Positions 2,197 to 61,383 of a stretch of 64,000 bases of DNA are shown in pieces. Position 1 is the stretch's first letter. Every line of letters starts with the position of its first letter. Position numbers and translations under genes: made by a program. This DNA comes from Leptogorgia sarmentosa (lineage: Eukaryota): positions 13,764,001 to 13,828,000 of the forward strand of contig OZ210885.1 in the NCBI GenBank assembly GCA_964658305.1, given 5' to 3'. The notes under the pieces were generated by a model, which saw only the letters and a program-made list of their open reading frames with translations, did no database searches and had not been told where the DNA came from.

Positions 2197-2605
2197 CTGC
2201 ATTATGCTCGACCAAACTATTTGTTGACAGTTTCCCGTGGAAAAACACATTATTCTGAAGCGAACCAAATAATACTATTTTACCGTCGGGTGATATTACT
2301 GGTGGGACGCTCGACCCTTGACGAACAGTCGATACTTGTAGTGAGTCGAGATTGATTTCACAAGTATGCATATCCCGGCTGCATGTGTAAATCATGTTGC
2401 GATCGCATGCTAATTCCTCTGTGTAGGACGCGGGTAAAATGACTTCTTTCAAAAACGCATCAGGCTTTTGCCAGTCCCTGATGAACACATGGTTATCTTT
2501 GCATCCAATTATAACTTGCAACCCATCAGAACTAAAGCGAACAATCTCAGGTGTGCCATCGCTATCAATTTCATTGATCACACTGCCATCAGACAAATTC
2601 CACAC
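2197..2605 (-). CDS. Exon: WD40 repeats
   Basis: TTTTCAAG acceptor. VWNLSDG...VRFSSDGLQVIIGCKDNHVFIRDW...ISPDGKIVLFGS. Possible donor G/GTGGGT. Confidence 0.82.
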
Positions 2606-5600: not shown

Positions 5601-8600
5601 AAAAACAATACTCAAAAATTTGAGTAATTTGAACTATATAACTCAAAAGTTGTGTAAAGTCAACAAAATGTCAAAACAAGTTACTCACAGATATCCACGA
5701 CATGAGTAACTTTACTCACAGCTACTCATGACATGAGTAACTTTACTCACAGCTACCATGACATGAGTAAGTTCACTCACAGCTACGCATGACATGAGTA
5801 ACTTTACTCACAGCTACTCATGACATGAGTAACTTTACTCACAGCTACCATGACATGAGTAACTTTACTCACAGCTGCGCATGACATGAGTAACTTTACT
5901 CACAGCTACTCATGACATGAGTAACTTTACTCACAGCTACCATGACATGAGTAACTTTACTCACAGCTACGCATGACATGAGTAACTCTACTCGCAACTA
6001 CCATGACATGAGTAACTTTACTCACAGCTACGCATGACATGAGTAACTTTACTCGCAACTACCATGACATGAGTAACTTTACTCACAGCTACTCATGACA
6101 TGAGTAAGTTCACTCACAGCTACCATGACATGAGTAACTTTACTCACAGCTGCGCATGACATGAGTAACTTTACTCACAGCTACGCATGACATGAGTAAC
6201 TCTACTCGCAACTACCATGACATGAGTAACTTTACTCACAGCTACGCATGACATGAGTAACTTTACTCGCAACTACCATGACATGAGTAACTTTACTCAC
6301 AGCTACGCATGACATGAGTAACTTTACTCGCAACTACCATGACATGAGTAACTTTACTCACAGCTACTCATGACATGAGTAACTTTACTCACAGCTACGC
6401 ATGACATGAGTAACTTTACTCGCAACTACCATGACATGAGTAACTTTACTCACAGCTACGCATGACATGAGTAACTTTACTCGCAACTACCATGACATGA
6501 GTAACTTTACTCACAGCTACTCGTGACATGAGTAACTTTACTCACAGCTACGCATGACATGAGTAACTTTACTCGCAACTACCATGACATGAGTAACTTT
6601 ACTCACAGCTGCGCATGACATGAGTAACTTTACTCACAGCTACGCATGACATGAGTAACTCTACTCGCAACTACCATGACATGAGTAACTTTACTCACAG
6701 CTACGCATGACATGAGTAACTTTACTCGCAACTACCATGACATGAGTAACTTTACTCACAGCTACGCATGACATGAGTAACTTTACTCGCAACTACCATG
6801 ACATGAGTAACTTTACTCACAGCTACTCATGACATGAGTAACTTTACTCACAGCTACGCATGACATGAGTAACTTTACTCGCAACTACCATGACATGAGT
6901 AACTTTACTCACAGCTACGCATGACATGAGTAACTTTACTCGCAACTACCATGACATGAGTAACTTTACTCACAGCTACTCATGACATGAGTAACTTTAC
7001 TCACAGCTACGCATGACATGAGTAACTTTACTCGCAACTACCATGACATGAGTAACTTTACTCACAGCTACTTATGATATGAAGATTGTCATCGTTGCAT
7101 ATACGTAAAAATTTGCATAACTGCCAACATGAACCAATCAGTGAGTCCCAAAGGGATACCGTTGAGTCACATAATTGTCTATTCGGCACCTGGAATCCTA
7201 CACGTGTATCCTGCTTCGTGTTCAGAGCAAAGTTTCTTGTGGTCGAAGACCCGCTTATACTACCGAAAGTTAAGCTTTTTTAAATCTCGCTATTATGGAG
7301 CAAGTCCAGGAATGTTTGAAGAAAAATGGTTTTGAAGAATATCGTGACAGATTCCTTGGTAAGTTATTGTGGAATAATGTATTAATGCGCTACTTAAGGC
7401 GAAGCACATTTGTCTACATCAGCCGATTAACAGTGCCGAGTATTAATGTTTAAAGCCTAGTTATAGGTTTGTGTTTTTGAAATACCTTCTGCTTTGTTTA
7501 TTTGTGACAACGGAATCTGCAATTGTGACTGTGTGCCACCCGAAATACCGTATAAGCTAGCGGTATAATCAAAGGAGTTTGATGTCACTAAACACCATGA
7601 GCAGTGGTTGTTAGTAATCTCTCAACTAGCTGATGCTATAAATAATAAATTATCTGCATCAGAAAGAAATTCTTCATAATGACATAAAGTGCGACAACAT
7701 ATTATTTGTAATTTGCTCGCGTTTGTGTTGTCCAATACTTATTGACTTTGATAAGGCATGTCTTATCAATAAAGAAAAGAAGAAAACTGATATAGGCTAC
7801 ATGCACTGGTATAATATGCATGTGCTTAATAATTTTATTGTACTTGACCATGCAATTCAGGGATTAACTTAACATTCTGTAATAACAGTACATGCAAAGT
7901 AAACAGACAGTCCTGAAATAAATATCTTAGTATAGGAAATTTTACTTAAATGTTGTCATATCACATATGCATGTGATTTGTTGCAAACAACTCCGCATTC
8001 GTGATAAATCTACATCACTCAATCTCTGCACGTATTTTGCATTTTAGGAGGAATCCACGGTTGAGGAAACCGTCGAGGGTTATCGGAAAGATTACCATAG
8101 AATTTTTATCAAAGGTGACTGCCGAACACCCGAACGAGTTGTCATTGCGGCAGAACGCACAGTGTTGTTCTCGGTGGAAGGTGTGGAATCGTCAAAGCAA
8201 CTTTAGCACTGCTGGAAACGTATTACGTATTTATGTTTGAGTATCCTCAAATATTGAACAACTTTTATTTATATTTGCAAAAATGCGTTTTAAATATTAT
8301 ACAGGATGGGGAAAAACTTCCTGCAGCAATTGTAAATTTTGTTAACGATTTGGATTAAAGGATTTTGAGGAGTCAGAATTACTCATAAATTTGAGTCAAT
8401 TTTCATTTTACTCAGGATGTTGAGTCACTGTGGGTACATTTTGAGTGAGTCAATTTTACTCAACATTATGAGTCAGAATTACTCATAAATTTGAGTCAGT
8501 TTTCATTTTACTCAGGATGTTGAGTCACTGTGGGTGCATTTTGCGTGAGTCAATCTCACTCAACATTTTGAGTAAATTTACTCTTAAGTTTGAGTAAATT

Positions 8601-11600
8601 GTAGTTTTACTCAGGATGTTGAGTCACTGTGGGTGCATTTTGCGTGAGTCAATCTCACTCAACATTTTGAGTAAATTTACTCTTAAGTTTGAGTAAATTG
8701 TAGTTTTACTCAGGATGTTGAGTCACTGTGGGTGCATTTTGCGTGAGTCAATTTTACTCAACATTTTGAGTGAGAATTACTCATAAATTTGAGTCAATTT
8801 TCATTTTACTCAGGATGTTGAGTCACTGTGGGTGCATTTTGCGTGAGTCAATTTTACTCAACATTTTGAGTCAGAATTACTCATAAGTTTGAGTAAATTG
8901 TAGTTTTACTCAAGATGTTGAGTCACTGTGGTTGCATCTTACTTGAGTCAATTTTACTCAACATTTTGAGTAAAATTACTCATAAGTTTGAGTAAATTGT
9001 AGTTTTACTCAAGATGTTGAGTCACTGTGGGTGCATTCTGCGTGAGTCAATTTTACTCAACATTTTGAGTAAAATTACTCCTAATTTTGAGTAAATTGTA
9101 GTTTTACTCAAGATGTTGAGTCACTGTGGGTGCATCTTACTTGAGTCAATTTTACTCAACATTTTGAGTACAAGTACTCTTATTTTGAGTAAATTTTACT
9201 CAACAACTTGGGTCACTGTGGGTGCATCGTTTTACTCAGAAATTTGAGTCAAAATACTCAGGGATTTTTTGCAGTGTTGAACAATATATATCATGTGTCG
9301 CATCACCAAAATGCAAACTCGTACATGACAGAACTTCAGCATTCAGTAAGTTGTTGCTGGGTCTTCCAGCAAGGCAAAATAGATAGTACTGTAAGTGTGT
9401 TTCCCGTATAGATGACAAATTGCATGGTGGGGATTTTAGTAATGGGGGTATTTTACGATCGGGTTAATCTGCTTCCAGATTATCTAACTACATAAAATAC
9501 AAATAAAAGTTGTATTTATAGTACTCAGTTGTGTTGGTAGTGGCTTTATTAACAGGCAGCAAAGAGTCTACTCACTACCTAAATTATATAAACAGATTTT
9601 ACGTTTCGAGCAAAGGCCCTTCGGAGGGATCGAATAGTGTGTTACACTAATTCCCGACGAGGCCCTTTTGCGGGAAACGTCAAATCCATTTGTATATCCC
9701 TTATAGGTATTGAGTAGACCTTTATTTGTTGTTGATGTTGCCATCTGCTACCTACACTGGTCACATATTCATACTTCAATTATTATCTATCGTGGGTTAT
9801 GAGTACGTTGACCTGAAACCGTCATCATATAGGTCTGAATGAAGTTGATGTATAGTTTGTCTTAAATCTTGCATGATAATCCATTCCATAACACATGGTA
9901 AGTTAGTAACTTACTGAATCTGTCGAAATTTAAAGCTGTTTATGAAATTGAAAGGCAATGCTTCAATGCTCGTACTCAAAAACTCTTTTATTCCGTCCTC
10001 TGTTGAACGTTTTAATAACTTTTAGTACTAACGCTTAGTTTTAATCAACAGTTTTTTAGAATTTTTAGTTTTTAACATTTTTACCATATACTCTGATATT
10101 TTATATGTAATAGGTAACCATGCTGTTATGCCTATGGATGTATTTCAATCTTTAAGATTCCAAAATCCAAGGTCATTATTAATAATAATAATAATAATAA
10201 TCCATATATACTGATATACAATTTTACTAGACTATTTTTAATATTAAAATATAACCTACTTCAAACGGACATTCTTATGCTTTCTTACTATATATTATAT
10301 GTAAATGTACATTTCTTTCGGTTCTGGTTTAAGATATGTCAGTACGAAGTCCTGGAATGGATTAAATGTGAAGTTACAGGTTTCAAAACAAAGCGCAAAA
10401 CGCGGATGTCGTGCAGTTTAAGCCAGAGTTTCCAGTTTAAAAACACATCTGATATAGGCATATAGCAACAGAAAATCAAAGTTATAGACTTTTAGTTTAT
10501 GCCAGTCAACCGAAATCTGCGTATTACATATACTGACACTTGCACGCTGACGATTTCCTCTTTGTTTTCTTCATGAATTATTAATGCGTTTCACATTTCA
10601 CAAGTATATGTACCCATGGTTTGTAAAAAATCGGTATAAATTCCTAATAATGAATACGCCGAGTCCAAACGTGGAACAGACAATTCAAAACATTTCTTGT
10701 GTTTGGATGTTTCTATTGTTTTGTATTTTTATATGCACAGTATGACTAGTATAGGCTTGTGTACTACACCTTTATCGAGGACTCCGTCGAGACCTGGAAG
10801 ATATTCCCATCCTTTGACAGCGACACGACATAGCGATCATCAGCAGAGACTGCAACAAGTTTTGCCCGTTCAAGGTCACCTATTAATGAGGAAGGAAAAA
10901 ATAATCAATTCAGAAATTAAAGTAAACATTAAAAGGATATTTTCTGTAACAGTCACAAATGATCTGGTTGGACGCGTTATTAAAATTAATGCAGAAATCT
11001 TTGCAATTTAAGGATTTATATACAATGAAAAGAAAAATCTTGGAGAGTGCATTAAATACTGTATCTAATATGGCTGGATACTTTAACAAGCAGCAAAAGT
11101 TCTACTCACCAACTGAACGATATAGGCAGTGAATTTGTTTTCTAACGTTTATGAAATTGAAAGGCAATGCTTCAATGCTCGTACTCAAAAACTCTTTTAT
11201 TCCGTCCTCTGTTGAACGTTTTAATAACTTTTAGTACTAACGCTTAGTTTTAATCAACAGTTTTTTAGAATTTTTAGACCGAGATCGTCCGCAACCTATT
11301 TACGAGAAAGCTGGCCCAAATAGACAATTTGAACTATACCTGTGAAAGAAAAGCACTGTGTGTGAAGATTCCAAACTTTGAAAGTTCCATCTGTAGATGT
11401 GGAAACACATCTGGAGTCACCACGAGTGATTGTAATATCTGTGACGTCATTTGAATGATCAGAGAAACTGTTTTGTTCCATGTACGCAGCAGTTCCCAGG
11501 TTCCAAACCCTGATACTTCCATCCCATGACGCTGTCAATACCTTCTTTTCTTTGGGAATTATTGCAACACCGCTGAAATATTACAAGTTGATTGTTTATT

Positions 11601-14600
11601 ACTAACAATAATTTTTTCTACCGAAAAATGGCAAAGACGATCTCTGCCGGACTATTGATAGTTTAAGAAACCCATATCATCAAAATATGCTGTATAATTT
11701 ATTCATAAATGATCTGGGAAATATGTCCTATTCATCGAATGTTAGTGCAAATGAAAACTACATCTATGGTCACTTTATCTTTAGCAAAAATCGTTCTATT
11801 ATTATGTCGACAACAATTAAGAAGATAGATAGATAAAACCTTTATTTACATAGGGTAGTCCCGTCAGTAATAAAAATCACTGTTATCAACGGGAGCCCTA
11901 TTGACATATTGTAGAGTTCAGTACGGCAGAAAATCAACGAAAGCAGCAATACAAGATAGGATAATGATAGATGTACAACAGGTAAAATTATGTTGCATTG
12001 GATGTCATACGCTGAATTTCCTACGTTTATCCCTCATTAAAATCTTTCTAAAGCCCAAGTCGTCCATTGCAAATAAGCACGACTATAGCCAGAAGCCAAT
12101 CAGTATATTAGTGTAACAACTAGAAATTCTTATAGCGTTGTGAACAAATGGATGACTGAAAATTACTTTCATGGTGTTCAACTTCGCTATCTTTTCAATT
12201 CATCAGTAACCTATTTCAAGAAGCAGTACGTCTAAGTGTGACTGTGAAATATCGTAATAAATTAATACAATTACACAAAACAGAATGTGTTGTATGTTAA
12301 GCTTAATGTGATGTATTGGGTCTTCGTTGTTGCCATGCCCGCTTAACGATCCTTTCGCTAAATTAGATATAGCTGCTAGAGTGAACTCACCTGATCTCAT
12401 TGGTATGACCTTCATAACAGGAAAGGCACTTTCCAGTGTGCAAACACCACAACCTCGCACTTCCTCTGCTGTCTCCAGAGATAATATTCTTTTTATCATC
12501 GCTCACAGCGACACTGGTAACAATGGATTCATTACCCTTAAGAGTACGAATTTCTTTACATAGTTTTAAATCCCAAATTTTTATTGTCCCATCGTATGAA
12601 CCAGACACAAGCATTGGATTGTTTTTTCCTGAATCTAAAAGAGAAACTTCGCACTTTAGTCGAACTGGCACAAAAAAAACAAGGGGAAGCAAAGTACATA
12701 TTGATATCCTAAATATATTCAATAACTCGATCGCTGACAGGAGAAATGTTCATATATGCTTCTGCAAGTCAAGGCAATGGATTCTATAGTAGTCCATAAT
12801 TATACAGAAAGTTGATTTTGTTGGTACCGTTAGGATATTTAAGAGAAATTTACGCAAAAAGAAATTCCAATGTGTCAGTTGAAATACTCAAAATATGGCC
12901 GAACCGTCTGGCAAGTACAACAGTCATGATCACGAATGAATTGTGCAAAGTAACACCATTCTTCCAGTTAGTTTTGCACAGTGTTAAGGCTCATTACCAC
13001 GGCGAGGAGGTTATGTAATCATCTTGGTTTGTTTGTGTGTGTATGTGTGTGTGTTGGTCTGTGAACACGATATGATAATATAAGTGTTAAAACGAAGTTT
13101 AACTTCTGAAAAGTCTAAAACGTTTTTTCCTGAGGAAATATTCGAGTACCCAAATTTATAATTGCTATTTCAACCTATATCAATACTATGTACTGTAAAG
13201 TTACGGAAAAGTCTAATGAAAGATCGTAAGAACTCTGCGTCGGTGCAATTACTCAAAACCAGAGTGTAACAGTACTGAACAGCACATACACTGTAGCACG
13301 TACCGCAATGGGAAATTTTCATTGCTGCATTTCATGTCATGATTATTGGTTTGCACATGTATTCATATTTATGTTTGGGAACATAACTGTGTTCAACTGC
13401 TCTTAACTGTTGCCTAGCTGCTCTTTCATGTCACTGAGTAACTGTGAAAATTGACCAATTAAATTCAATTATTATCACATTTATTCAAGCAATTAACCTA
13501 CCAAGTTCTAACAGTACAGCACAACGTTTGTCACAACAATTATAAAACAGGTCAAACTATATAAATTTTGTCTGTTGGAATAAGAGGATCTGAGGTGAAG
13601 ATGGACAAGGTATGTCAAACGACACCTGGCTATATACCTTGGCAATGGACAGTATATCTAAAACAATATTACTTTATAAAAAACATTCATGTTGGCTTTC
13701 ATCCGTCACTTCATGCCAAATAAATGCCAAGTCTTTTGAATCTACTAGTACAGTATTGCAATTTATACATTAAGGTCTGGGACACGGGGTAATCAGTTGA
13801 AATATACGCACAAGCAAATTGTCTCAAAGTATTTTTAGAAAGCTAGCATAGATAAATCTAATAGCCATTTTAAAATACTCTTAGCATATACAAATACAAC
13901 CAGCTTAAAAATTTAAAAGAAATCAGAAAGTCCTAAAATATTGCTTGTACATGAATGCACTGGTTACCACCATACTAACAATAAGGAAAGACATTGCTTT
14001 CTTTCTGGGCATAATTTTTAATTACAATATTAGAATGCTGTTGCAAGCAGGTATTTTTGTGCAATAATTGGGAAAATTTATTCCAAGACATGATATTCCC
14101 CTCCAATCCTTGCTTTATTGAACCATTAAGGAAGTTTATAATAAAGAATATGTTTTATCCGAAAGAAATAACAAAAATAATACGAAGAAACTGTATTAAA
14201 GTAAGATCTTCAAAAAGTTATGAAATATTAACTCATACAGTATTGCATACCTGTTGCGACAACACATTTCACCCAAGCTTTATGGCCAACAAAACTGGCC
14301 TCAAAATTTAGTGTATCGGCTTTCCACAACTTGATAGTCTCGTCTTCATCTCCAACAGTAGCAATGAACTGTCCATCTTTGGTCGTACACAGCGACTCGA
14401 CTCTCTCAGGAATACTTGTTGAGAGGTTTTCTCCGGTAGATACACAATACACTTTCAGCCCTACAACGCATGATGGATACTCGTCAGACTGATGTTTCAA
14501 TAATGTCTAACCCTAGACGATTTTGTGAAATCTTGTTTTTAATTGTGTCCCTCTCCGGCGCTGAACATGCTCTGGCTGTTGCTGGCTTATGTTTTTACAC

Positions 14601-26600: not shown

Positions 26601-29600
26601 CAGCAGTTGTCATGCTTAGTTGCTAGTTACAATTATTGACATCACAACCAACGATTAACAGAGTATAGTATGCATTTGTTCTTCATTAAGTTAGCAATGT
26701 TCTTTACGACGGGAAGGATATGCAACATGTGCGGTTATGCATAAAGTCCATAAATATCGACTTCAGCTCTGGGAAGAATAATCCTTCTTTGGTCGTGTCT
26801 TCAAAAAATCTTGGAAGTTTTCATTGTATATAATCATTTTCGGGAAGTTGAGATCACATACATATTTACGATCGTGCTATAGTTCTCTTATCTGATCATT
26901 GGTGGCTGACAGTTGATAGTTGAAGTACAGATGAAATACTGCATAACAGGTAGCCTTATAGCTTTTATATATTGCTGTTCTGATTGACCTCGCTTCTTAG
27001 AAAATTCAACAAAATATTAATGTCATGGTTTCATCTGCCTTTGTAAATTTACGAGATCAGTTAAATAGTCCGAGTCAGCTCTACATGAAACATAACTATC
27101 ATCAAACTCAGCAATATTTTCAGCTGCTGAAAATGACCAAGACCACGTATAGGATTACCAAGCTGACGAATCATGGCAAATAGATCTTTTTTACACCTTT
27201 CAAAGTATGGAGGTGATCCGCGTAAATTTCTTAAAACTCCAAATCCTTCATCCAAATTGATTAACTTGTTGACACAGCTTTCTGATTTTAAAATTTTAAT
27301 TTTAGTTTAACAGTTACGCAATGACGACTTGCACTTCCTTGAATTTGCCTGATCTGTAATTTCTTTAGTTCGTTAAAAATGTTTGGGACAGACTGCGCGA
27401 GTCTTCTATCTTTGCTTCGCAATTCCCATTTACATATAGTGCTATAATGAACAGGCATTCCTTCTCCTGGTGCAAAACTTATTATTCTGTCACCATCTTT
27501 GGTAATGTCGGTTTCTTGTAATAATGTATCCATAAGATCTGATGACCGTTCAGTCGCTGCACACCACTCATCTGTATCATCATCAATCAAGTCATTTTCT
27601 CAACTACTTCTTGACCGTGAGCGTTCACATTTTCTGAAGTGTTCATTCCATCCATGGAAGTAATTTCCGACCACTCCTCTTCATTATTATCCACTTGATT
27701 TGATACATAACTGTCCATTACTTGTATTCCTTCGTTTTTAAATAATTCACTGGTACGAACGAACAATTGAGCTGGTTTTGAAGTTTTACTAATAGCATTC
27801 TGAAATATTTTACTAATACCTTTTAAGACGTGAGGTTGGGCGTGGTTAAAACGTGAGACGTATTCAATACTTCATATAAGCTTTCATGACTATCTCGCAT
27901 TCCGGAATTCGCGCGATCATATCAAATTGCATAAGGATTTGAAACTTGACGACATATGATATCGCATGTCATTCGGTCTTTAAAATAGAGACAGCGCTTT
28001 GCGATTGTTTGTGAAAAATGTGGCTTTCTAAAAACCAAATTTACTTTTTTCAAAACCATATCATAATAATATATTTATATACACTATGTTCTGTCCATTC
28101 ATGCAGCATTTGCCTGGACGCTAATGTGTATGATCGGTATGTGTGTAGGTTCAAAACAGAATACTTTAAACTATATACGAATTCGTTTGTTTTGTCTCGC
28201 GCTTAATAAACGCACAAATCCATTTTATTACATGCTATAAAATCTATTTTCCTGGGATTGAGAGTTTCAACCATTCCGGGCGGCAAATTGATACAATTGT
28301 CGTGAAAAGGGTATCAATTTTGTGTGCGTAATACAAAAATATACAAATTTTGAAAACTTCACAGGGGTATATTTCTCGCATTTTATACCATTTCGCAACC
28401 AAACTCTGCAATCTTACTAACTTTGAAATGCTCTTTAACGCTGTTATTTTGAATTGCATATTATTTCGAGGTTTTGGAAAATTTTCTCTATTATGTAAGC
28501 GGTCCATTGACGCCCTTTTTACAATGCCAGAAAGCATAAAACATCGCTTCGCAAAACAAAAGTAGAAAGACTGTTAAAGTTCTGTGAATTCGCAAAGCAC
28601 CGATCTCATGCTTAACACCAAAAAATACTTTACTCCAATACAACAGAACGTTACTTCCTACAGTTTTGTAAATTCTTAATATTATTGATTAATTAATGTC
28701 TAACTGAATTTGATTCCAATCTCCAATAATATATGGTGTGGGTGAATGACAGTGACTGTGAAAATAGACCGATCACATGCATACTTTGTGTGAATCATGG
28801 GCGTGTATTACCCATGGAGACGCATCATATGAAGAACCGCGTATACATACGAACCAACGTCGTACCCAGGGTCTCTTGTGGGAGAGACCCTGGCGCCGGC
28901 TGGTCACGTGACTCCAATTAATATTTGTTCTTGTGAGAGGGTGGGTGAATCTCGCATATATAATTAGTTCATGAAGCCATGTTGCCGAATACGAAGTATG
29001 GGATTTTCCGTTTACAGTTTGCAATACTAAATAGTTTGTATAGTGAGGTGATTTTAAAGCCAAAACAGGTTATTTGCTTCGAAAAAATATTTTTCTACAC
29101 ACTTGACTGGGCAAGCTTGGATCGGGAGCAATATTGAGGCCATACAAGTGTTCAGCGATCTTTAACAATTCCCGATTTGATGGCTTCAAAATATCTTTGC
29201 GATGGCTCGTGTCACCGACAGTTCGGCAGAGTCGACAAGACGCGGGATCGATACAACTAGTACAAACGGGCGCTCTATATAATTTCTTTGGTGTTTCCTT
29301 CGAAGCCATACCGCGCAAATGACCTTTGAAGCTCTGCACATGTTAATGCTATTGTAATTTGATATGTAAATTATTTGATCCAGTGCACAGAGAAAATACT
29401 AGCTCGTATATTAATTCCTCCATTATTTTCGCGTTTAAATATTTTCTTCGCTCCTCGCTCGAATAGCTTTAATTGTGCTCGAATGAAAAATGTGACAAAC
29501 ATACTTTCTCTCCCACCCTAAAAGATTTTATATAAAAATACACGTGACCAGCCGACGCCAGGGTATTTTCCCCTGAGCTATACTTAATATATCTGGAGAT

Positions 29601-32600
29601 CAGGTCATAATACCTGGCCGTACAAAATAGTGTCGCCAAAAACATGGCGGATTTTAGCGAAATTTACGTCATTATGGCGTAGTAAGTCCCCTATTTCAGG
29701 GGACTAACCACTGACCAAATAACATTGCCGTAATTGAGCAGTTTTCTCACCCCCCTGTCTGAAAATAAAATACTAACATCACGTAAAAGTTTTAAATTCA
29801 AAACAATATTTCGTTGAATTTTGTTGATTATCAACATGCCGCGTTTTTGCTATGTTTACGGATGTCACAACTCCTTTGACAACAAAGAACTGTCGTCACA
29901 CTGGTCCATTCCTGTCCTCTTTAATCAATCGCGTTCGGTATTTATAGGCGCGTACATCAACAAATATACAACAATATATTTTTGAGATGTAAGAGAATTT
30001 TAATACTTTATCTCAATTCTTTGAAAAAATATCAAAACAGCACTGCAGTATATATTTATATATAAAATCGTACAGTAAAATCCAGGGGGAGGTTGGAAAC
30101 GGCGCCTGCACACACTTCAACTGTGGTCAGTAATTACTATCATAAGAATAGGGGACGTGTCACATAAAATCCGCCATGTTTCCGGCGACACCTTTCAGTG
30201 GAGTGCCTGATCTCCAGATTAATAATATAGCTCAGTGGTATTTTCGCAGCGGGCGCACTAGCCTACGCTGACTCAGCAAAATTACCCTGGCTTGCGAGGT
30301 TGCATACGAACTAGCTGGTTAACAATAGAGAAACTTTGTTTTCGGATAGCATGCCTAATGGAGTATTTATAAAGATAGGCATAACATTCACGAAGTAATA
30401 CTTCGCGTTATATAGTGTGGTAACAGTCCAAAACAATTGCCATTCATCTACATGCAACCGTACTTGGGCAGTGGTGGAAGCCGTTTCGACGTATCGAGCA
30501 AAGACCCTTAAGCCGGTTTTCCACTAGCGATTTTTGTCGCGCGAAGCGAATATTTTCCATTGTCCTTGATCTTTCGACTGGAACCATCTGGAACTAATTG
30601 CATCAAGACAAAAGAAAAAAATCGATTCGCGCGACGAAAGTCGCTAGTGGAAAACCGGCTTTAGTCGTTAATTAGTAGTGGGGTCGGGGGAAAACACAAG
30701 GGTTTTTATATTAGTGAATATATGGAAACCAAGTAAAAACCAATCGGATGGATTTGGTACACCAGTTTTCGAAAGCCTTCGCCAGAAATGTGGAATCGTA
30801 TCGTGTAGGCGGTGAAAAAAATATTTAGCAAAAAAAGAAAGTAATTACCTAACAGCTGTGGACCAATAGAATGCAAATTCTTCTCGATAACCGCGAAAGA
30901 CCGCATCAACGACGTCTTGAGCAGTTCGATTTCTTTCGAGGGCTGGTCCAGAAAACGAAAATCTGACATTAAGGAGGGGAGATCGAATTGATTCACCTTT
31001 TCATAAAGCCAGTTAAAATTGAAGAACAGTTTATGTAGTTCATCAAATTGCTCGGAGGAATGGAGGTGATAGGTCAGGTACTTGAAATAATAATCCTTGT
31101 TGCCTTCAAATTTTCCCCAATCACCGTTCTCGCAATGACCACGAAGTGCCTTCACGAACAATCTTTGGACAGAACTTAGTTTGCCTCCTAGTTTTGCACG
31201 TGCAAAACCCAAAAGGAGATCATGGAGACGGTAGCTCTTCTTTCCATGGATATCAGATCCTGAAAATTATCGTTATAAGGCGAATTTCAATGAAGTGCAA
31301 AATTTTGGTTAGCGATCGCTTTCTTTTGAAATGCTTGCAATCACCCAAAGTTAATGAGAATCGTTGACTGTTTGTATTTCAAAATAAAGCGTTCGCTAAA
31401 AGTCGATCGTCGCCATTTCGCACAGAATTAAATTCTGCCATTAGAGAACATAGTCACGTATGGTGATTCGAAACGTTTTTGTACAGGACACTAGAGCAGT
31501 CTGGGACTGCAGTCAGGCTATAGTACAATAATTTTTCAGATTTAGTATACCCCAGGGCGAAGGATGTATTTTCCATTCAATTCGATTTGTTGCTCATCTA
31601 CGAATGTCAGAGGAAAACACTGAAAATATTGGGCAAATGAACGGGCAAATTTGGCTAGCCCACATATGAGTCAACATATTATGATTATAGCTGAAAAATA
31701 ATTTCCTTAGGCTTGCTTGACGTTGATTTGATTAAATGTTCAGCCTAACAACTTGTTGACAGTTAATATACAGCTTTCGCAAAAGGAGCTGTAGTAAAAA
31801 AGCATTTGAAAATTTTCTCGTCGTATTCGTTCATTTCATTTGATTGCATGAAGCAACAGACAAATTTAGCGATCACAAAAGTTTAAAAATAAGACAACAA
31901 GCAAATCACCACAGTTGGAAATAGCGTGCTGAAATTAGCATGAATACAGAGTTTGAAGAATAAAAATTATAAAATGAGGAAATTTAGCCTGTGCCCCAGA
32001 CCACACACGGTTTGTGTATGGTCTGTGCAACGAGCTCCTAAAAGCTGTCCCGTTACGTCACAGCTTTCACCGCCAGGCGGGGAAAATTTATGCATGATTA
32101 AGTTACAAGGCGACAAATTATACATACATTTGTAATAAATCGATTAAAAACATGCTTAGTACGCTAATGGCAATGGCATGACTTCCCCGCCATGCTGCAG
32201 TATCTGTGCAATAACTTTAAAAAACAACAGCGACTTCAATCTCATCGAAAGGTCAGGCCAATTTAATCCGTTGGAGATTATACGCACTTTGCCCTTTGTG
32301 GTTTTTAGCAGTATCGCGAAATACGTTTGCAAAAGATGCAAATCAAAGTTAAAAACTCTTAGTAATCTTCGTGGAAACGTTTTAAAGGCAGAAGAAGAAC
32401 TGAGGAAGCTTTATGTAGCGATATCTATGCTTCGTCTGAATACGCCGCCATCTTGATTGAAATTATAATAATTTTAATCATAATAATTGCATACATTTTG
32501 CTAAAAGCTGTGACGTAACGGGACAGCTTTTAGGAGCTCGTTGCACAGACCATACACAAACCGTGTGTGGTCTGGGGCACAGGCTAGAGGAAATTGTGCC

Positions 32601-35600
32601 CATGCAAATTTAGCACAATTTACATACTATTTATAAAGCAGAAGTGATTTAATACCCATTTTCGCCTGAAATGGATATAATTTTGTTTGCCCTGATACAA
32701 TAGTACACAAAATGAACTGTGTCTGGCAATGATATTCCCATTTTATGATATTTCTTCTTTAAACTTTGAAGTTATAGTAATTTTTGCACGCTGTTTCCAA
32801 CTGTGGCGAAGATTTTTGTCTATTATCATGCACCGTGCCTTCATTTACCTTTTTGAATCATCGACTTCTTTTCGAGCTCATCAAGTATACGTCTTGCTTC
32901 ACGACGGCTGCACGAAGTTCTTCCGGCTACTTTGGAAGACCAAAACATCTCAAGAATGTCTGATGGTACATCCGTATCTTCTGGAAATAAAGCGAAATCT
33001 AGAAACTTTTCTCGTATTTCTTCGTTCAAATGTTGAAAGCTGGCGTTAATGGCTGTTAAGACGTTGTCGTAAGGATAAGCTTCGGCGGGATATATTGAAC
33101 GTAATTTTACCAAGTCTGCTGTTTTGAGGTCATTTAAAACGTCTTCCCAGTCTTGTTCGTCGCGAGTGTCGGCTAAACTTGAACCCACTAGGGACAGAGC
33201 TAGCGGTAGATCGCCGCCGTGGTTTAACATTTCCTCAATAATTTGCCGCATGTTTGAACTAAACTTAGACTGCTCGTCCTCGGTGACTCGGGCAGTTTGA
33301 TACAAGAGCTTGTAAGAATCATCCCGTTTTAAAAATTTGAGTTTATACAAAGCAGAACCTTGTAAACCGCGGACAACTTCAGAATTCCTTGTAGTTATCA
33401 ATAATTGGCATTTTCCAGAGAGATGATCAAACACAGAAGCGTGGTTTACACTCCAAACATCATCAAGAATCACCAAGCAATCTTTATCACTCTGCAATAC
33501 ATGGAAAACTACTTTATCGTCGTATGTGTTGATACTTTTCGACTTATTTATTGGGGGTAAAATTAATCGCGTCGGAACAGAAGGAAAGTTATGATGACTT
33601 CTGAGTCAGAAGGACACCAACTCTCATGACAGAAACATGGTAAAAACATCGGGATCAATGAAATTTTATTTAAAGTAAATTAGCGCTAGGGGTCTCTTTT
33701 GAGAACGGTTTTCTTGTTATATCGTGGCAACGAGTATTACATAAACCCTGGGAAAGGTGCACATACCGTATTTGCTTTTATCCAGCCTTGCGCGGCACGG
33801 ATATCAGAGAACGTCATTTCTCCACCAATGTCTTTTATGAGGAGGTTAATCAGCGCTAGACAGTCTGGAGTTTCTCCAATATCAAGCCATATTACCTGAC
33901 GAGATTCCTTGGCAGCCCAAGCAACGGCCAGAGCTAAGATGGTCTTACCCAGACCCCCCATACCACGGATACCAACGACGTCGCCCCCACGATTCCCAAC
34001 CACACCAACTCTACTATTTCCATCCGCAAGTAACCATAATATCTCGTTCACTTCTGACGGTCTCTCCACCATGTCACGTGGTAGACTGCGCAAACCATGG
34101 GCAACTAACATATAAAATAAGAATTGATGCTGTATTAGTAGACCCACTTTTGTGTGTGTAACGAATCGACAATTAATTACATATATTAGCTGGCGCACCC
34201 ATTTGCTAACGCTCTGTCGTGTCATCCTACAGAGTGTCCCAAAAAAACGCTACCATTGAAAATAATCTATTGTTAGAATTACAATGCCTCGCACTATAAG
34301 TTTAGCCCAAGGGTGCATAAATTATTGAAAATTTCTTAATAGCTATTAAAATTGTTGTTATAGATTATTTTGAATGGCAGCGTTTTATTGTGGGGGGACC
34401 CCCTGTGTTCCAGGGACAAAATCACGACTACACCGTAGAGATTTTTCGTAATATATTATTAATACATTCAATAGTAAAGTGATTAGATTGGATTAAAAAT
34501 GATTCAAAATGACCAGATTTGTACCCAGACCAATAGATTTCTATTTACCTGAAGAGTGGATCTCTACAGCTTTACAAATACGACACAAACTGACAAACAC
34601 ACTTTACTATCAACTCATAGACTCATAGACTCAACTCGTCTATTTGTTCCCTGTTCCCTGTCACAGTCAAACTGACATCCTGTTCATCTTATCGTCAATC
34701 AACCATTACTTAATTATAGTTTTCTGCATGCGCATCAGTTATACAAATCATGGCCGGCGTAATCAAGTTAATAATCAACGGTTAATTAAAGTAAATGTAA
34801 ATGTAGGCTGTCCATAACAACCTGTATGTATTTAAAAGGCGTTGCGTTAAAAATGCACATTCTCTGTAATTGCCTCAAACTGGCTACTTTTTCTTATAAT
34901 CATATAGAGGGTAAATTTAATAAAACCTGATTGACTAAATCTTCAGCATTTTTCACGTACGGCTTCCTCGCATTATTTGTCGTGTATGAAATCGTCAAAT
35001 TAATTAGCTTAAAAGTAATTTGGTAAATATTTAAGAAAATTCTGTAATTTGCCTGTGCCAAAACACTGCATGCGAAATCTCTTGGATTACATACAAGCCA
35101 TTTTTCCAACTTTTTGCGTTGTACACCTGTGCTAATTTAGAAACGTTAAACTGGAGAATATTACGCAGACTATCTTACTGATGGACCAAATATTGACTGG
35201 AATGCCTAAAATACTAAACGCCCAACTGATATACTAATACAACTGCTTAATTCATACATAAAATTAAGTGGCTTTCCAACAGATCTGACTATACTTCTAC
35301 AATTACTCTTGCTGGCTAATTTTTGGCGCGTAATCTCACTGTAATATGTTTTTTCAACAATTTGATACCTTTTTTTGCCGAATAATTTCTTTGTTTCTCA
35401 TAATGATTTTCCGTTATGTTGACATTTTGCTGTAAACTCTCCATTTTGTCAGCATGGCTTTGCAGCTCCTTTGAATAATGTTCAAATTTTGCCGCGTGTT
35501 GTTCAAGTTCCTTTGACTGATGATCAAATTTTGCCGAGTGTTGTTCAAATTCCTTTGAGTGTTCTCCAAGTTCCTTCGAATGATGATCAAATGTTGCCGA

Positions 35601-38600
35601 GTGTTCTTCAAGTTCCTTTGATTGATGTTCAAATTTTGCCGAGTGTTGTTCAAGTTCCTTCGAGTGTTCTCCAAGTTCCTTCGACTGATGATCAAATTTT
35701 GCCGAGTATTGTTCAAGTTCCTTTGAGTGTTCTCCAAGTTGCTTTGAATGTTCTCCAAGTTCCTTTGACTGATGATCAAATTTTGCCGAGTGTTGTTCAA
35801 GTTCCTTTGAATGTTCTCCAAGTTCCTTCGACTGATGATCAAATTTTGCTGAGTGTTGGTCCAGTTCCTTTGAGTGTTCTCCAAGTTCCTTTGACTGATG
35901 ATCAAATTTTGCCGAGTGTTGTTCAAGTTCCTTTGAATGTTCTCCAAGTTCCTTCGACTGATGATCAAATTTTGCTGAGTGTTGGTCCAGTTCCTTTGAG
36001 TGTTCTCCAAGTTCCTTTGACTGATGATCAAATTTTTCCGAGTGTTGTTCCAGTTCCTTCGAGTGTTGTTCAAGTTCCTTTGAATGTTCTCCAAGTTCCT
36101 TCGATTGCTGGACAAGTTTTTCCGAGTTTTTCGCGACACATTTTTCAACTTTTTCAATTCTGCAGACCAGTTTTGAATGGAAGTTGTCAAGTTTCTCTAC
36201 CGCGGCATTCACCTGCAGAGATACAAGTAAAGAGTTATAAATATTTCAGTTTATATTAAATATACATGATAAACATTAAATATTAAAATATCTAAAGATA
36301 TACAAATTATGCTTAATTCAGAGAACAATACATGTATAAATGCGCGAATTTTTCTGGTCAGCATTAGAAATGAAATTATATTTCGAAGCATCATGCAATA
36401 TTCTTTTAGAAATATTGTCCCACAATGTGCTCCAAAAATGCGACCAAAGTAGCCGGAGGAACTTCGTGCAGCCGTCGTGAAGGAAGACGTATACTGGATG
36501 AGCTCGATTAGAAATCAATGATTCATAAAGGTAAATGAAGGCAGGGTGCATGATAATGGACACTGTTCTAAGTCAGCGATATTTAGCTATCACATCTTAA
36601 ATTGCCATAAAAAGAAGCAGAAAGTTCTATAATTAAAAAATTTATATGCTTTTGGAACTTACGTATTGATCGATTATAAAGCAAATTCAACAGTTGCAGG
36701 ATAAAAATAAATATAAAACGGGCCATATGTCGACAAAATTTACATTCATCTTCGCGGAAGTATTATAGCCAAAGCGTTAGCATAAAAAAGGATTTCAAAT
36801 TTCTCTTTAAAAAGGCATAATTCAAGTTTCGTTATACTTCATTTCGGATTCATATTCGAAAGGCATGGTATAAGCGTTGCCGCCATTAGATTTTCGTTCT
36901 TTAGGATGCCGTAGGCCTAATTCAGACGTCGTACATTTCATGTGCCAAACCTAATGTTAACGAGCTAAGTTCTTTGTTTGAGTTCAATTGGATTAGGCTC
37001 GGCACATCAAAAGTCTGACGTCTCAAGTTTCAACTGGCCTTATTCCACAGACACCAGAGAATATGCTCAGGTTGGATTCGTATTGAATAAAACAATGTTC
37101 CTGTAGTTATAAAGCAGTAGCATGCAAAATGCTTCATGGCATTTCAACAAATAAACTACATGACCTCATGCATAAACACGTCAGAAGGGTAGATTAGTAG
37201 TAAAAGCAGGAATCTTTGAAAACGAATGAACGTTTCCGTGCCGACCAGCAGAACCAGAATTCCATGCAAGATAACCTCTTGTGACGTCATTATACATAAG
37301 GTCTATTGAAATTTGATATGTATGTTTGCTAGTTTTTAAACTTTTCAGAAAATTGTAGTTCAACGTTGGAACATCAATATTAATTTTGCAAGGAAAAGAA
37401 ATTGTTATCTATCAAAATTTAGGTTTATCTCTTGCCTATGAGAATGCCTCAATTGTTTTGCTTAATGGGGTGCATGTCATAGGGCTAGTTTTTTCCTAAA
37501 AGAGTATTTATATTAGTATTTATCAATAATTGATATGTAGTGTGTTTTATTTATCGGTACACGCTTCGTTCTAAATATTCTGTTGCAAACGTGTCCCCAA
37601 AATCTGTATGCAGATGTTTGCCTTGTAACGTGCTACGGGTAAAGTAAAACCAATAAAAACAGCATTATCGAATAAAAGCACAGATTGCGTTCCCACGCTG
37701 AAAATTTGCACTCGCTCGCATTTGAAACATGTCTTATATTAATTTGAACAGCGTCATCCTACTTATTCAACGACTGTTAAATGAAACATCAAAAGTTCCT
37801 CAAACCTTTGTGGCGTCCAAATCGTAGTTTTTGATACAACGGCAAAGTTCAGCTACACTTTCTGCAATTAGTTTTGCGTCACGACCATCAACAAGAATGT
37901 CTGGAAATAATGAAAAAAATTTATCTTGAGTATCACAAACACTATAAATATATCGCTGCTAATGCGCGTAGCACGAAGGATACATGAAAAAGCATGCCCT
38001 ACTGTCCATATATATATTTGATAAGCATGGTCTGCTGTCGCTATTAGCAAACTTCAATATGCGGCCAGTGTAGTGGATAGGGGATAACAACATCAGCAAG
38101 CAGTACATGTCCTACCCACTACCTAAACAATGCAAACAGGTTGGACGTTTTGAGTAAAGTAGATTTTTTGCATGATAGACATGCAAAAATTTCGAAATAG
38201 TACAATCCAGAGCAACAGCGTTAATAAAGAGTATGACAAAGTTAGTAAAACTGTAAAGTCTGGTTGAGAAATGTTTTAAAATGCGAAAAATATGACCCTG
38301 TAAAGTTTTCAAATTTTGTATATTTTAGTATTACCCATGCATTTATATCCTTATCGAGAAAAGTCTATGAATTTTGCGTGCCTAATACTAAAATGAAAAA
38401 ATTGGCAAAATTGCGTTAAACATTCCCGACTTTTGAATGATTGAAGTTTTGAACACAAATGTCCAACTGGAATTAGTACGATTTACGAAGTCTAATTCAT
38501 GTGAAATTTCGATTTTATGCATATATCAGCATATATTAGTTGTACTATACTGTATATCATGTCGTATACAGTATTAAAGGCATTAACTTCTGCACTTATA

Positions 38601-39513
38601 TGAAGGTCTAAAAATAAATCACTGTTACCAATTCAACACTAGATTTCTACAAGTGTAGCTAAAGTAAAGCTACACTATTGGAGAATTTAATTTTTTTTAC
38701 CTGTTCGACCCCATATAATTTCAACGATTGATCGTATTGAGATTCGCATTGAATTGTATATATGGAAATATATGAATAAAATTGGATGATAATAATAATA
38801 ATAAATGAATAATAAGAGAAATTCTTTCAACACATGGGGGTTTTCTTACCGGAGATAAAAAATGATCTGCGCAAAACATATTTAAAGGCATGATGAAATT
38901 CCGGCAATAATGCTAATAATACAGTACCTGTTTTATTCCAGAAATCTAGTTCATCACAAATTATTTTTTCGTCAGCTATTGGTAAATTTAATATTTTGAC
39001 CAAAGATTCCATTCCTTGAAACGAGGCATTGAACATATGTACAGTCCATTCAGAGATGTTACAATGAGCCCATGGGTTTCTGATGTCCGACCGAACTTTG
39101 TTTGCTTCAGCTGCAGCACCAGATGATACAAAAGGAGCTGCCTTGCCGATAATAGTCAGAATGGCTGACATATCCATGGTTTTATCAAATCCAGTGAAAT
39201 GTGCCATAAAGTCCGTGACGAATAGTTTCGCCAAAGAGACAGGATCTTTAACAGCATAATCATAAGCTGATTTAGTAGGCTTGTGGATAATGTTATTGTT
39301 AATGTTTTGATATTGTAGGTTATGGGTGGAAGGGGGTAATTTCTTCCTTCTGTATGCTGCGAAATCTTGCTTGTGAATTTCATCAGGTGGTTGGCATAAA
39401 GAATGATACCACTTCCCAAGTTCAATGGCGACAACGTTCCTCAATGCAGGTGCAAGAACTTTGGTAAAGGCAATGCCAACTAAAACCCAATGTTGTTCTT
39501 CCTCTGATATCAT
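2197..39513 (-). CDS. Multi-exon STAND receptor: HEPN-like (CXorf38/DZIP3 type) - heptad coiled coil - NB-ARC (APAF-1-like) - WD40 repeats, about 1520 aa or longer
   Basis: Manual splicing with GT-AG sites and matching phases: 39513-38928, 37900-37806, 36212-35369, 34104-33767, 33491-32849, 31259-30849, 26117-25872, 17552-17334, 14460-14251, 12634-12391, 11572-11340, 10879-10794 (alternative donor 10770), 2605-2197. No in-frame stops. The 3' end is uncertain: candidate last exon 1854-1799, read-through to the stop at 2189, or continuation left of the window. Confidence 0.85.
5696..7071. repeat. Minisatellite, 30/31-bp unit CATGACATGAGTAACTTTACTC(A/G)CA(G/A)CTAC(G/T), about 45 copies
   Basis: Directly visible head-to-tail array with no spacers. 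Confidence 0.97.
7295..8358 (+). pseudogene. Remnant first and last exons of a SAMD3-like transposon accessory gene
   Basis: 7295-7358 reads MEQVQECLKKNGFEEYRDRFL then GTAAGT, like a SAM-domain start. 8048-8358 follows a TTTTAG acceptor and, with one frameshift, reads ...LLETYYVFMFEYPQILNNFYLYLQ...stop. Confidence 0.55.
8370..9260. repeat. Tandem repeat, 99-100-bp unit, about 8-9 copies
   Basis: ACTCA(G/A)GATGTTGAGTCACTGTGG recurs at 8410, 8510, 8609, 8708, 8808, 8908, 9007 and 9106. Confidence 0.95.
9938..10200 (+). mobile_element. 3' fragment of a LINE with (AAT)n tail
   Basis: Encodes KNSFIPSSV, typical of CR1/L2-group RT C-termini, followed by an AT-rich UTR and (AAT)n at about 10180-10200. 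The first 131 bp are duplicated at 11147-11277. Confidence 0.5.
10794..10879 (-). CDS. Exon: short WD40 segment (GDLERAKLVAVSADDRYVVSLSKDGNIFQ)
   Basis: Phase-1 acceptor. Joins the next exon as DGNIFQ-VWNLSDG. An alternative in-frame donor exists after 10770. Confidence 0.7.
11340..11572 (-). CDS. Exon: WD40 repeats
   Basis: LTASWDGSIRVWN...HSNDVTDI...VSTSTDGTFKVWN. Phase 2 to 1. Confidence 0.92.
12391..12634 (-). CDS. Exon: WD40 repeats
   Basis: LVSGSYDGTIKIWD...ISGDSRGSARLW...EGHTNEI. AG/GTGAGT phase-2 donor. Confidence 0.92.
14251..14460 (-). CDS. Exon: WD40 repeats
   Basis: Joins as GTDDG-LKVYCVSTG, then DETIKLWK...FVGHKAWVKCV. TTGTAG acceptor and G/GTATGC donor. Confidence 0.85.
17334..17552 (-). 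CDS. Exon: WD40 repeats
   Basis: LLGHSDVVSCLAVSQSGTILASGSRDRSTILWR. Phase 1 to 1, G/GTAAGC donor. Confidence 0.9.
17892..18069 (-). repeat. 3' LTR
   Basis: Preceded on the minus strand by the polypurine tract GAGGGGGGGAG (18072-18082). Confidence 0.95.
18186..21891 (-). pseudogene. pol: Gypsy pol (PR-RT-RH-IN) broken by frameshifts near 20699 and 18490
   Basis: DLKSGYWQ continues in another frame as KVEEGDKEKTAF. YLDD, HHCC and a GPY-type integrase tail in ORF 18186-18404 are present. Confidence 0.93.
21947..23395 (-). pseudogene. gag: Gypsy gag interrupted by one in-frame TGA at 22907-22909
   Basis: ORFs 22907-23395 and 21947-22900 are in the same frame. Capsid-like YDGQSSWEAY...LARDQF and a damaged zinc knuckle CWKCGCWKCA. 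Confidence 0.85.
23412..23428 (-). other. Primer binding site TGGCGACCCCGCCAGGA (probably tRNA-Arg)
   Basis: Starts with TGG 3 nt inside the 5' LTR. Its complement TCCTGGCGGGGTCG-CCA resembles metazoan tRNA-Arg 3' ends; the tRNA identity is inferred. Confidence 0.75.
23432..23609 (-). repeat. 5' LTR
   Basis: Direct repeat of 17892-18069, followed on the minus strand by the PBS. Confidence 0.95.
25872..26117 (-). CDS. Exon: end of helical domain and first WD40 blade (not in the ORF track)
   Basis: TTTTCCAG acceptor. Translation GRLLSYEEYPGIKTLLEQL...LVPEFSCLDLGGPE...VICGLENGSITIFDLDTG, which completes the QLLGRL motif. G/GTAGGT donor. Confidence 0.85.
26900..27805 (-). pseudogene. Degenerate Helitron Rep/helicase N-terminal fragment
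   Basis: FAPGEG, YSTICKWELR..DRR and LRGSPPYFERCKKDLFAMIRQLG motifs typical of the Helitron N-terminal region. Broken by frameshifts and deletions. Confidence 0.75.
27810..28225 (+). repeat. Dispersed repeat of about 420 bp with an inverted copy at about 62620-63045
   Basis: TACTAATACCTTTTAAGACGTGAGGTT...TTGTCTCGCGCTTAATAAACGCACAAA matches the reverse complement of the distal copy. Confidence 0.85.
28855..30302. mobile_element. Non-autonomous TIR element with 9-bp TSD (AcademH- or MULE-like) carrying a ZAD-like ORF remnant
   Basis: Ends CAACGTCGTACCCAGGG and CCCTGGCTTGCGAGGTTG. TSD CATACGAAC at 28846-28854 and 30303-30311. Minus-strand ORF with CRLC...LPSQVC. Confidence 0.75.
29571..30237 (+). 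mobile_element. Nested P-element-like non-autonomous transposon with THAP remnant
   Basis: TIR C(C/A)CTGAGCTATA...TCTGGAGATCAGG. 8-bp TSD GTATTTTC at 29563-29570 and 30238-30245. MPRFCYVYGCHNS, a THAP-like start, near 29837. Confidence 0.7.
30511..30660. mobile_element. PIF/Harbinger-type MITE
   Basis: TIR AGCCGGTTTTCCACTAGCGA, flanked by TTA on both sides. Confidence 0.75.
30849..31259 (-). CDS. Exon: MHD motif (YRLHDLL) and APAF-1-like helical domain
   Basis: TTTCAG acceptor. Translation GSDIHGKKSYRLHDLL...YYFKYLTYHL...FNFNWL...PQLLG. G/GTAATT donor. Confidence 0.88.
31985..32586 (+). mobile_element. Non-autonomous TIR element, TAG..CTA termini, about 80-bp TIRs, 9-bp TSD (AcademH-like)
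   Basis: TAGCCTGTGCCCCAGACC...GGTCTGGGGCACAGGCTA. TSD GAGGAAATT at 31976-31984 and 32587-32595. Internal 92-aa ORF with CSIC...VCKRC. Confidence 0.85.
32849..33491 (-). CDS. Exon: NB-ARC Walker B, sensor 1, GLPL region and winged helix
   Basis: CLVILDDVW, CQLLITTR, DLPLAL and FALFPED motifs of the APAF-1/NB-ARC type. TTGCAG acceptor and G/GTAAAT donor. Confidence 0.92.
33767..34104 (-). CDS. Exon: NB-ARC N-terminal part with Walker A
   Basis: VVGIRGMGGLGKT P-loop and VIWLDIG strand. TTAG acceptor and ACG/GTATGT donor. Confidence 0.9.
35369..36212 (-). CDS. Exon: long coiled coil made of 7-aa tandem repeats
   Basis: CTGCAG acceptor (phase 0), 21-bp repeats encoding SKELGEH/SKELEQH/SAKFDHQ, phase-1 donor after 35369. 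Confidence 0.8.
35454..36104 (-). repeat. Coding minisatellite, 21-bp unit x31, with 63-bp and 126-bp higher-order periodicity
   Basis: 31 consecutive heptads counted in the translation. The block SKELGEH-SKELDQH-SAKFDHQ-SKELGEH-SKELEQH-SAKFDHQ occurs twice in tandem. Confidence 0.95.
37806..37900 (-). CDS. Exon: linker (DILVDGRDAKLIAESVAELCRCIKNYDLDATK)
   Basis: TTTCCAG acceptor and AAG/GTTTGA donor. This 95-nt exon converts phase 1 to phase 0, exactly as the flanking exons require. Confidence 0.75.
38928..39513 (-). CDS. Exon: N-terminal HEPN-like domain (CXorf38/DUF4559- or DZIP3-HEPN-like)
   Basis: Translation shows WVLVGIAFTKVLAPALR, DPVSLAKLF, MDMSAILTII and IRNPWAH (R-X4-H) in a helical pattern. 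Acceptor AG at 39522-39521, phase-1 donor after 38928. Confidence 0.7.
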
Positions 39514-61300: not shown

Positions 61301-61383
61301 CCACGCTCTGGGATTCTGGCATGAACAATCTCGCAGGGATCGTGATAAGTACATAACAATACATTTCGGAAATATCCGAAAGG
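55398..61383 (+). CDS. Astacin-family (peptidase M12A) zinc metalloprotease, secreted, 3' part beyond the window
   Basis: Exons 55398-55467 (signal peptide MKVFIICLIVGILGFVKS), 55648-55716, 57098-57274 (FEGDI prodomain motif, RKR site, WP...IPY), 58544-58676, 60062-60153 (GCSSRVG...HEIG) and 61300-61383. Spliced signature HEIGHALGFWHEQSRRDRD. All phases are consistent. Confidence 0.92.
56894..57030. mobile_element. Harbinger-type MITE
   Basis: GGGCCGGTTGTATAAAA...TTTTATACAACCGGCCC with CAG/CTG flanks. Confidence 0.65.
57460..57945. mobile_element. Foldback MITE with about 80-bp inverted ends and an internal tRNA-like segment
   Basis: AAAGACCTCAA...TTCTCAATTGAGAACA...ATGCCCACGCTGGACTATCG is mirrored at the right end. 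Confidence 0.7.
59138..60035. mobile_element. hAT-like non-autonomous element in an astacin intron
   Basis: TIR CAAGGGCGTCAATC. 8-bp TSD GTCAGAAC at 59130-59137 and 60036-60043. Confidence 0.8.
60858..61208. mobile_element. Foldback MITE with about 90-bp inverted ends
   Basis: CGGTCGTTGCCTTCCAAAACG...CGTTTTGGAAGGCAACGACCG. Confidence 0.75.

Follow-up and report, generated by a model that had tools for sequence, protein, structure and literature searches.

What would an animal immune receptor do if its adaptor-recruiting N-terminus gave way to a ribonuclease? The question is raised by a minus-strand gene in a 64,000-nt stretch of Leptogorgia sarmentosa (GenBank assembly GCA_964658305.1, contig OZ210885.1, positions 13,764,001 to 13,828,000; the whole stretch is hereafter the window), which places a predicted HEPN domain and a long coiled coil ahead of an APAF-1-like chassis of the STAND type (NB-ARC ATPase, helical domain and WD40 repeats). 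This is a real gene, and one gene. We hold with moderate confidence that its best mechanism is ligand-triggered RNA cleavage by a STAND immune sensor with a HEPN effector, and RNA cutting instead of caspase recruitment would likely be its answer to infection.

The gene and its relatives

The window is AT-rich animal DNA, and in its six-frame translation RNPWAH (39081-39064), Walker A GMGGLGKT (33964), Walker B LDDVW (33467) and LHD (31227) all lie on the minus strand. With exon borders taken as the splice sites read from the sequence, 13 minus-strand exons with AG acceptors and GT donors run in one frame from the ATG at 39513 to the donor at 2197 (4,582 nt, 1,527 codons) and hold no internal stop, as the in-frame splicing proposed in a preliminary description of the locus had implied. 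They encode, in order, the RNPWAH domain, a 28-heptad coiled coil, NB-ARC, the APAF-1 helical domain and ~12 WD40 blades, in agreement with the ten or so blades or more of that description.

Exon 1 (38928-39513, minus strand like all that follow; aa 1-195) encodes the predicted HEPN domain, of CXorf38/Swt1-like type, with D114 at 39174 and R145-N146-x3-H150 at 39081-39064; an AG acceptor 7 nt ahead of its ATG likely marks an intron in the 5' untranslated region. The short linker downstream of the HEPN domain (exon 2, 37806-37900, aa 196-227) shares 88% nucleotide identity over 76 nt with the related contig L002, and exon 3 (35369-36212, aa 228-508) encodes the predicted coiled coil, whose 28 His/Gln-Ser-Lys-Glu-Leu heptads ([HQ]SKELxx) reflect a 21-nt tandem repeat (35535-36118, 27.8 copies). 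The NB-ARC domain begins in exon 4 (33767-34104, aa 509-621) with Walker A and continues in exon 5 (32849-33491, aa 622-835; Pfam NB-ARC, expect value (E) 3.2e-19) with Walker B, the TTR sensor, DLPL and the start of the winged helix, followed in exon 6 (30849-31259, aa 836-972; Pfam APAF1_C, E 2.6e-12) by the MHD-type LHD and the APAF-1 helical domain. Exon 7 (25872-26117) completes the helical domain and opens the first WD40 blade, and further WD40 sequence is encoded by exons 8 (17334-17552), 9 (14251-14460), 10 (12391-12628), 11 (11340-11572), 12 (10770-10879, placed by its match to full-length relatives) and 13 (2197-2605, with a GT donor at 2196). On single exons Pfam finds NB-ARC, APAF1_C and WD40; exon 1 alone gives no Pfam match at E 0.1.

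The splicing of the window locus rests on relatives. The protein P0001 (1,205 aa) matches the window exons in order; its contig L002, one of 2 loci obtained out of 84 pattern matches, aligns at the nucleotide level with 11 of the 13 exons, lacks an intron at ten junctions and runs at its 3' end into GT exactly at the start of window intron 11, as expected of a partly spliced RNA. A second complete protein, P0287 (1,709 aa), has the same domain order, so that the joining of the HEPN exon to the NB-ARC exons, on which the preliminary description depended, is matched at the junctions in both L002 and P0287. Only these two proteins among 120 chassis relatives carry this N-terminal domain. L002 also has an in-frame stop five codons upstream of its ATG and therefore encodes no CARD; exons 1-3 of the window contain no N-terminal CARD, and none of the 94 minus-strand frames of at least 45 aa between 39521 and 64000 matched any death-fold family (shorter frames were not scanned). 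An upstream CARD or death-domain exon is hence rejected, and the absence of both modules that had first been read from the locus stands.

The gene is probably incomplete in the window, with further exons beyond base 1, because five full-length relatives extend 375-400 aa beyond exon 13 and that exon ends at a GT donor. Positions 1-2196 show no match to the C-terminal tail of these relatives (best E 0.28), and the stop at 2191-2189 was rejected as the end of the gene on the same two grounds, the longer relatives and the donor at 2196.

The N-terminal domain and its family

RNPWAH conforms to the HEPN superfamily motif R-phi-x3-H (phi = N, D or H), and across homologous domains R145 is kept in 257 of 264, N146 in 255 and H150 in 256 (each 97%). 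R and H, the pair singled out in the preliminary description, occur together in 251/264 and D114 in 262/275, and R, N and H are retained down to ~35% identity. In the predicted structure the motif lies where helix 133-149 ends (predicted local distance difference test score 95).

The same sensor could nonetheless carry a HEPN domain that does not cut, but serves to bind RNA or a protein partner, or to decoy pathogen inhibitors, with signalling as its output. We consider this unlikely. PMC3710099 does include RNA-binding or inactive groups among its HEPN domains, the ancestral N-terminus was most likely an adaptor (a death effector domain, DED), and W148 and W156 match R and H in conservation, so that conservation of the motif may be partly structural; however, inactive HEPN domains are described in the same survey as losing the motif, which is nearly invariant here, and the upstream Asp is also kept, as proposed for D134 of CXorf38 in a preprint (bioRxiv 10.64898/2026.05.28.728550).

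Profile similarity to HEPN families is weak but consistent: Pfam HEPN_Swt1 matches 81 and DUF4559 38 of 111 aligned members (E up to 0.1). Two of 30 chosen homologues (P0185, P0235) exceed the DUF4559 (PF15112) cut-off, and in P0185, which is 34% identical to exon 1, the match spans the whole domain; the window domain itself lies below it. DZIP3-like HEPN (PF18738) matched none of the 111 members at E 0.1, and this identity was rejected; P0221 has one weak match at the motif region (E 0.02), and the strong matches in P0137 and P0283 belong to a second, separate domain. Of the two affinities first suggested by eye, that to CXorf38/DUF4559 is thus upheld and that to the DZIP3-HEPN group is not. 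Since most members and exon 1 fall below the Pfam cut-off, the domain appears to be a divergent sister family within the Swt1-like group, not CXorf38 proper.

In favour of a HEPN identity, language-model neighbours are annotated HEPN_DZIP3/DUF4559 on a minority of members, with a recognition value below the tool's mark. A second look with Foldseek ranked Mob1, Csm6 and bromodomains alike, a profile search of PDB sequences gave one match (E 0.2) that we judged to be chance, and a search of NCBIfam yielded nothing relevant; HEPN homodimer prediction, at a score of 0.00 in two runs that did not use the alignment, spoke neither for nor against pairing. The unspecific fold search, together with the abundance of such HEPN exons in these genomes (127 short matches), leaves some room for the view that exon 1 is a separate gene or a non-HEPN helical bundle and the fusion an artefact of reading. 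We regard that view as very improbable, given that the same fusion, joined at corresponding positions, is found in two independent relatives that lack the introns, and that the region of the motif is recognised by two Pfam profiles of the HEPN group.

The subfamily is large (554 clusters at 50% identity); in 38 of 45 long homologues the domain starts no later than residue 63, and it often precedes STAND or GTPase domains and repeats. A scan of prokaryote genomes gave 15 pattern matches and no relatives, within the limited reach of a short pattern. Other members are fused to a kinase and an RNase L-type KEN domain (P0239), stand beside a second, DZIP3-type HEPN domain (P0137, P0283), follow Roc-COR (P0165, P0186) or precede an AIG1 GTPase (P0180). 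The nearest relatives of the window domain include dozens of single-exon frames (P0015-P0031 and clusters), several on contigs of equal size, which point to tandem expansion.

Ancestry of the chassis and state of the window copy

The closest relatives of the chassis are proteins of Dendronephthya (64% identical over 467 aa), Xenia (52-53%) and Nematostella (43%), a ranking that points to an octocoral as the likely source. The N-termini of these relatives are tandem DEDs (P0286, P0288, Nematostella P0291) or tandem death domains (Xenia P0289); Dendronephthya isoform X1 is 57% identical to the DED region of P0286. PMC2246300 and PMC10959488 describe paralogues of APAF-1-like type that begin with DED, death or TIR domains, and an amphioxus chassis relative here has a TIR N-terminus. 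Identity over the chassis falls to 25% for a CARD-type APAF-1 (spider) and ~31% for bacterial NB-ARC-WD40 proteins.

In a 14-row tree the window protein nests among anthozoan DED/death paralogues (support 99/96 and 100/100), with DED proteins outside its group on both deeper branches. The NB-ARC domain groups with the DED, death and TIR paralogues, the single CARD-type APAF-1 in the tree lying on a long branch, and by these sequences the chassis appears not to be APAF-1 proper. Because NB-ARC through helical domain 2 nests among tandem DED/death paralogues, the module that HEPN replaced was most likely a DED pair, and not the CARD named in the preliminary description, which the trees do not favour. 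The replacement would have happened once or twice: support for a clade of the three HEPN-bearing rows is no more than 78/79 in the 14-row tree, and is 88 in a quick 50-row tree, and a quick HEPN tree of 62 chosen rows sets the window and P0001 in a 14-row group (99) within an octocoral HEPN-STAND-TPR expansion, with P0287 apart. All relatives join their N-terminal module just ahead of x-P-[FYH]-G-L, at the position of the window's phase-1 intron, which fits exon shuffling. We hence propose that a one-exon HEPN from the octocoral HEPN-STAND-TPR family may have replaced the tandem DEDs before NB-ARC.

With the anthozoan DED/death paralogues (the Dendronephthya XP_028393314 group, Nematostella XP_032223290 and Xenia) the window protein shares the chassis of NB-ARC, winged helix, helical domain 2 and WD40 repeats, the NB-ARC exon start and a WD40 region of ~930-990 aa, whereas its N-terminus is HEPN plus coiled coil in place of a death-fold pair, so that it would act as an enzyme and not by recruiting an adaptor. 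The same chassis domains are shared with vertebrate APAF-1 (P0001 matches mouse Apaf-1 at E 5.6e-57), from which the window protein differs in having no CARD. APAF-1 has 15 WD40 blades. An AlphaFold2 model of the C-terminal 927 aa of P0287 (predicted template modelling score 0.57) has 28 strands, a linker and 55 strands, or ~21 predicted blades, 12 of which correspond to window exons.

The NB-ARC motif set of STAND proteins (Walker A and B, sensor Arg, GxP/GLPL and MHD) is present; GLPL is altered to DLPL (G715D, 33212-33210), while Walker A and B, TTR and LHD are all intact. The family might work as proposed while the window copy decays or has a weakened switch, which we think quite unlikely. 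The window differs at 10 of 115 chassis positions invariant in nine relatives, as against 0-4 changes in six octocoral-type DED/death relatives, and a recent long terminal repeat (LTR) element with 99% identical LTRs sits in intron 7. Yet the 13 exons hold no stop or frameshift and their splice sites are all canonical, the other two HEPN-bearing proteins diverge too (5/110 and 14/119), Tyr or Cys occurs at position 715 in bacterial or amphioxus relatives, and the ratio of nonsynonymous to synonymous change against L002 is below 0.5 in all folded domains (HEPN 0.26, nucleotide-binding domain 0.28, helical domain 1 to winged helix 0.43, helical domain 2 0.24, WD40 0.47; 0.74 in the 59-codon linker).

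Several other elements share the window. The intron 7 insertion, which is recent, is a Ty3/gypsy-type retrotransposon (17892-23609, minus strand) with 178-nt LTRs, TG...CA ends and a 4-nt ATAT duplication, its gag, protease, reverse transcriptase, RNase H and integrase spread over several frames. Intron 2 holds an inverted 119-nt copy (36444-36562, plus strand; 92%), with stop codons, of the end and donor of exon 5 (32817-32935); this copy might base-pair with exon 5 in the unspliced transcript. Intron 5 carries a probable non-autonomous DNA transposon (31985-32586), 600 nt long and bounded by perfect 83-nt terminal inverted repeats, and intron 12 contains satellite arrays at 5681-7082 (30/31-nt units, ~1.4 kb) and 8370-9197 (99-nt units, 8 copies). 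Two copies of a repeat in opposite orientation (87-94%) lie at 27064-27936 (minus strand, intron 6) and 62551-63014; by eye, broken frames in the intron 6 copy resemble a Helitron-like replication protein. Upstream are local tandem duplications (41276-44763, ~1-2.3 kb; 47616-51406, 2.15 kb) and, divergent from the STAND gene, the exons of an astacin metalloprotease (57076-61457, plus strand; Pfam Astacin E 8.5e-7 and 2.8e-10), of which that at 57076 was assigned by eye.

Mechanism, precedents and meaning

Judging from what is known of its families, the protein would be a cytosolic immune sensor that works as a STAND switch. A ligand would bind the WD40 propellers and open the ADP-bound protein; NB-ARC would then exchange ADP for ATP, and ATP-bound subunits would oligomerise, passing from closed form to ring as in APAF-1. 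The long coiled coil may zip neighbouring subunits into pairs and so bring HEPN domains together, whereupon two R-N-x3-H motifs would form one RNA-cutting site, with D114 as a candidate helper. Host or viral RNA would be cleaved, and the cell would shut down or die without a caspase adaptor. Cytochrome c should not be assumed to be the ligand, because the chassis appears not to be APAF-1 proper and ~21 blades are predicted for P0287.

The motif by itself is weak evidence for a HEPN domain, because R-x4-6-H arises in 47% of exon 1 shuffles (R[NDH]xxxH in 2.9%), and conservation bears the weight instead; Foldseek returned no PDB match to the HEPN model at E 0.001; and the window copy, with its Gly-to-Asp change in GLPL, may be weakened.

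One core heptad position of the coiled coil (35369-36212) is always His or Gln, and the length of the coil varies greatly among relatives; it is speculation that such a core is sensitive to pH or metal. The ~230 aa of heptads between HEPN and ATPase also admit a different order of events, in which an active HEPN ribonuclease is permanently paired by the coil and held in check by the closed STAND part or by a post-HEPN helix until a ligand releases it. P0001 and P0287 have a far shorter spacer, so that the exact HEPN-to-ring geometry is not conserved, and a downstream helical bundle has been proposed to block the site in CXorf38 (bioRxiv 10.64898/2026.05.28.728550). We judge this order rather unlikely, as the protein retains all its nucleotide-switch motifs and the APAF-1 helical domain, which one would expect were oligomerisation important, and the polar core residues suggest a weak, conditional coil. 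Returning to ligand-induced assembly, our broadest proposal is a tentative one that we think somewhat less likely to be right than wrong: in octocorals the swap of a single exon, which may have happened twice, would have turned an apoptosome-type chassis that recruited caspases through tandem DEDs into one that destroys RNA directly. The product would be a three-propeller sensor acting on a HEPN ribonuclease by way of a His-rich coiled coil of variable length, and would parallel in animals the nuclease-armed STAND defence of bacteria.

RNA-cutting HEPN-STAND sensors have been suggested for animals before. PMC3710099 proposes RNA degradation in defence or apoptosis for HEPN fusions and lists, in its Table 1, cnidarian proteins in which a CXorf38-family HEPN is joined to NACHT and death domains; counts of such proteins exist for corals and oyster (HEPN-NACHT numbers of 17-83 per anthozoan, highest in Dendronephthya, PMC8260672; >50 in pearl oyster, PMC9646362; and PMC10236652). 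Among the matches listed from PMC10236652, 18 of 29 WD40 rows are HEPN-NACHT-WD40, one also marked NB-ARC; none of its 27 DUF4559 rows has WD40, and all seven APAF-1-domain rows of its Additional file 16 (five stony corals) lack HEPN or DUF4559. The coral and mollusc receptors described in these three papers (DZIP3-like HEPN-NACHT-WD40/LRR, HEPN-NB-ARC-TPR and DUF4559-NACHT-Ank/LRR/TPR) share with the window protein an N-terminal HEPN R-x4-H, a STAND ATPase and a C-terminal repeat sensor, as well as a proposed ribonuclease effector and lineage-specific expansion; in contrast, the window HEPN is CXorf38/Swt1-like and mostly missed by Pfam, and its ATPase is NB-ARC with the APAF-1 helical domain. 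CXorf38/DUF4559 itself (the Swt1-like HEPN group of PMC3710099, where fusions to NACHT, ankyrin, CARD and death domains are already listed) shares R-N-x3-H, a conserved upstream Asp and, in some members, a whole-domain profile match, whereas most members of the window family fall below its cut-off; an R-N-H plus Asp site is predicted for CXorf38 in the TAMALE preprint (bioRxiv 10.64898/2026.05.28.728550). RNase L and bacterial NACHT/STAND antiphage proteins, whose NACHT effectors include HEPN (bioRxiv 10.1101/2022.07.19.500537), share sensor-driven assembly that activates a nuclease, by analogy and not by descent. Our literature searches, whose reach excluded most subscription papers, found no paper on HEPN fused to this APAF-1-like chassis; what appears to be new here is this combination, in a class already known and with a predicted ribonuclease role.

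Few immune genes of corals and bivalves have expanded as much as those for HEPN-STAND proteins, whose ribonuclease role is treated as a prediction in the papers cited here. Here the HEPN domain sits on the best-understood STAND chassis, for which switch mutations are known and whose sister genes keep death-fold adaptors, and with this combination one could ask cleanly whether STAND receptors of animals can execute defence themselves by cutting RNA; if the rewiring reading is true, the DED-bearing sister gene is a natural control. Since Pfam largely misses this HEPN subfamily, genes now named "APAF-1-like" or "uncharacterized" may hide more such fusions.

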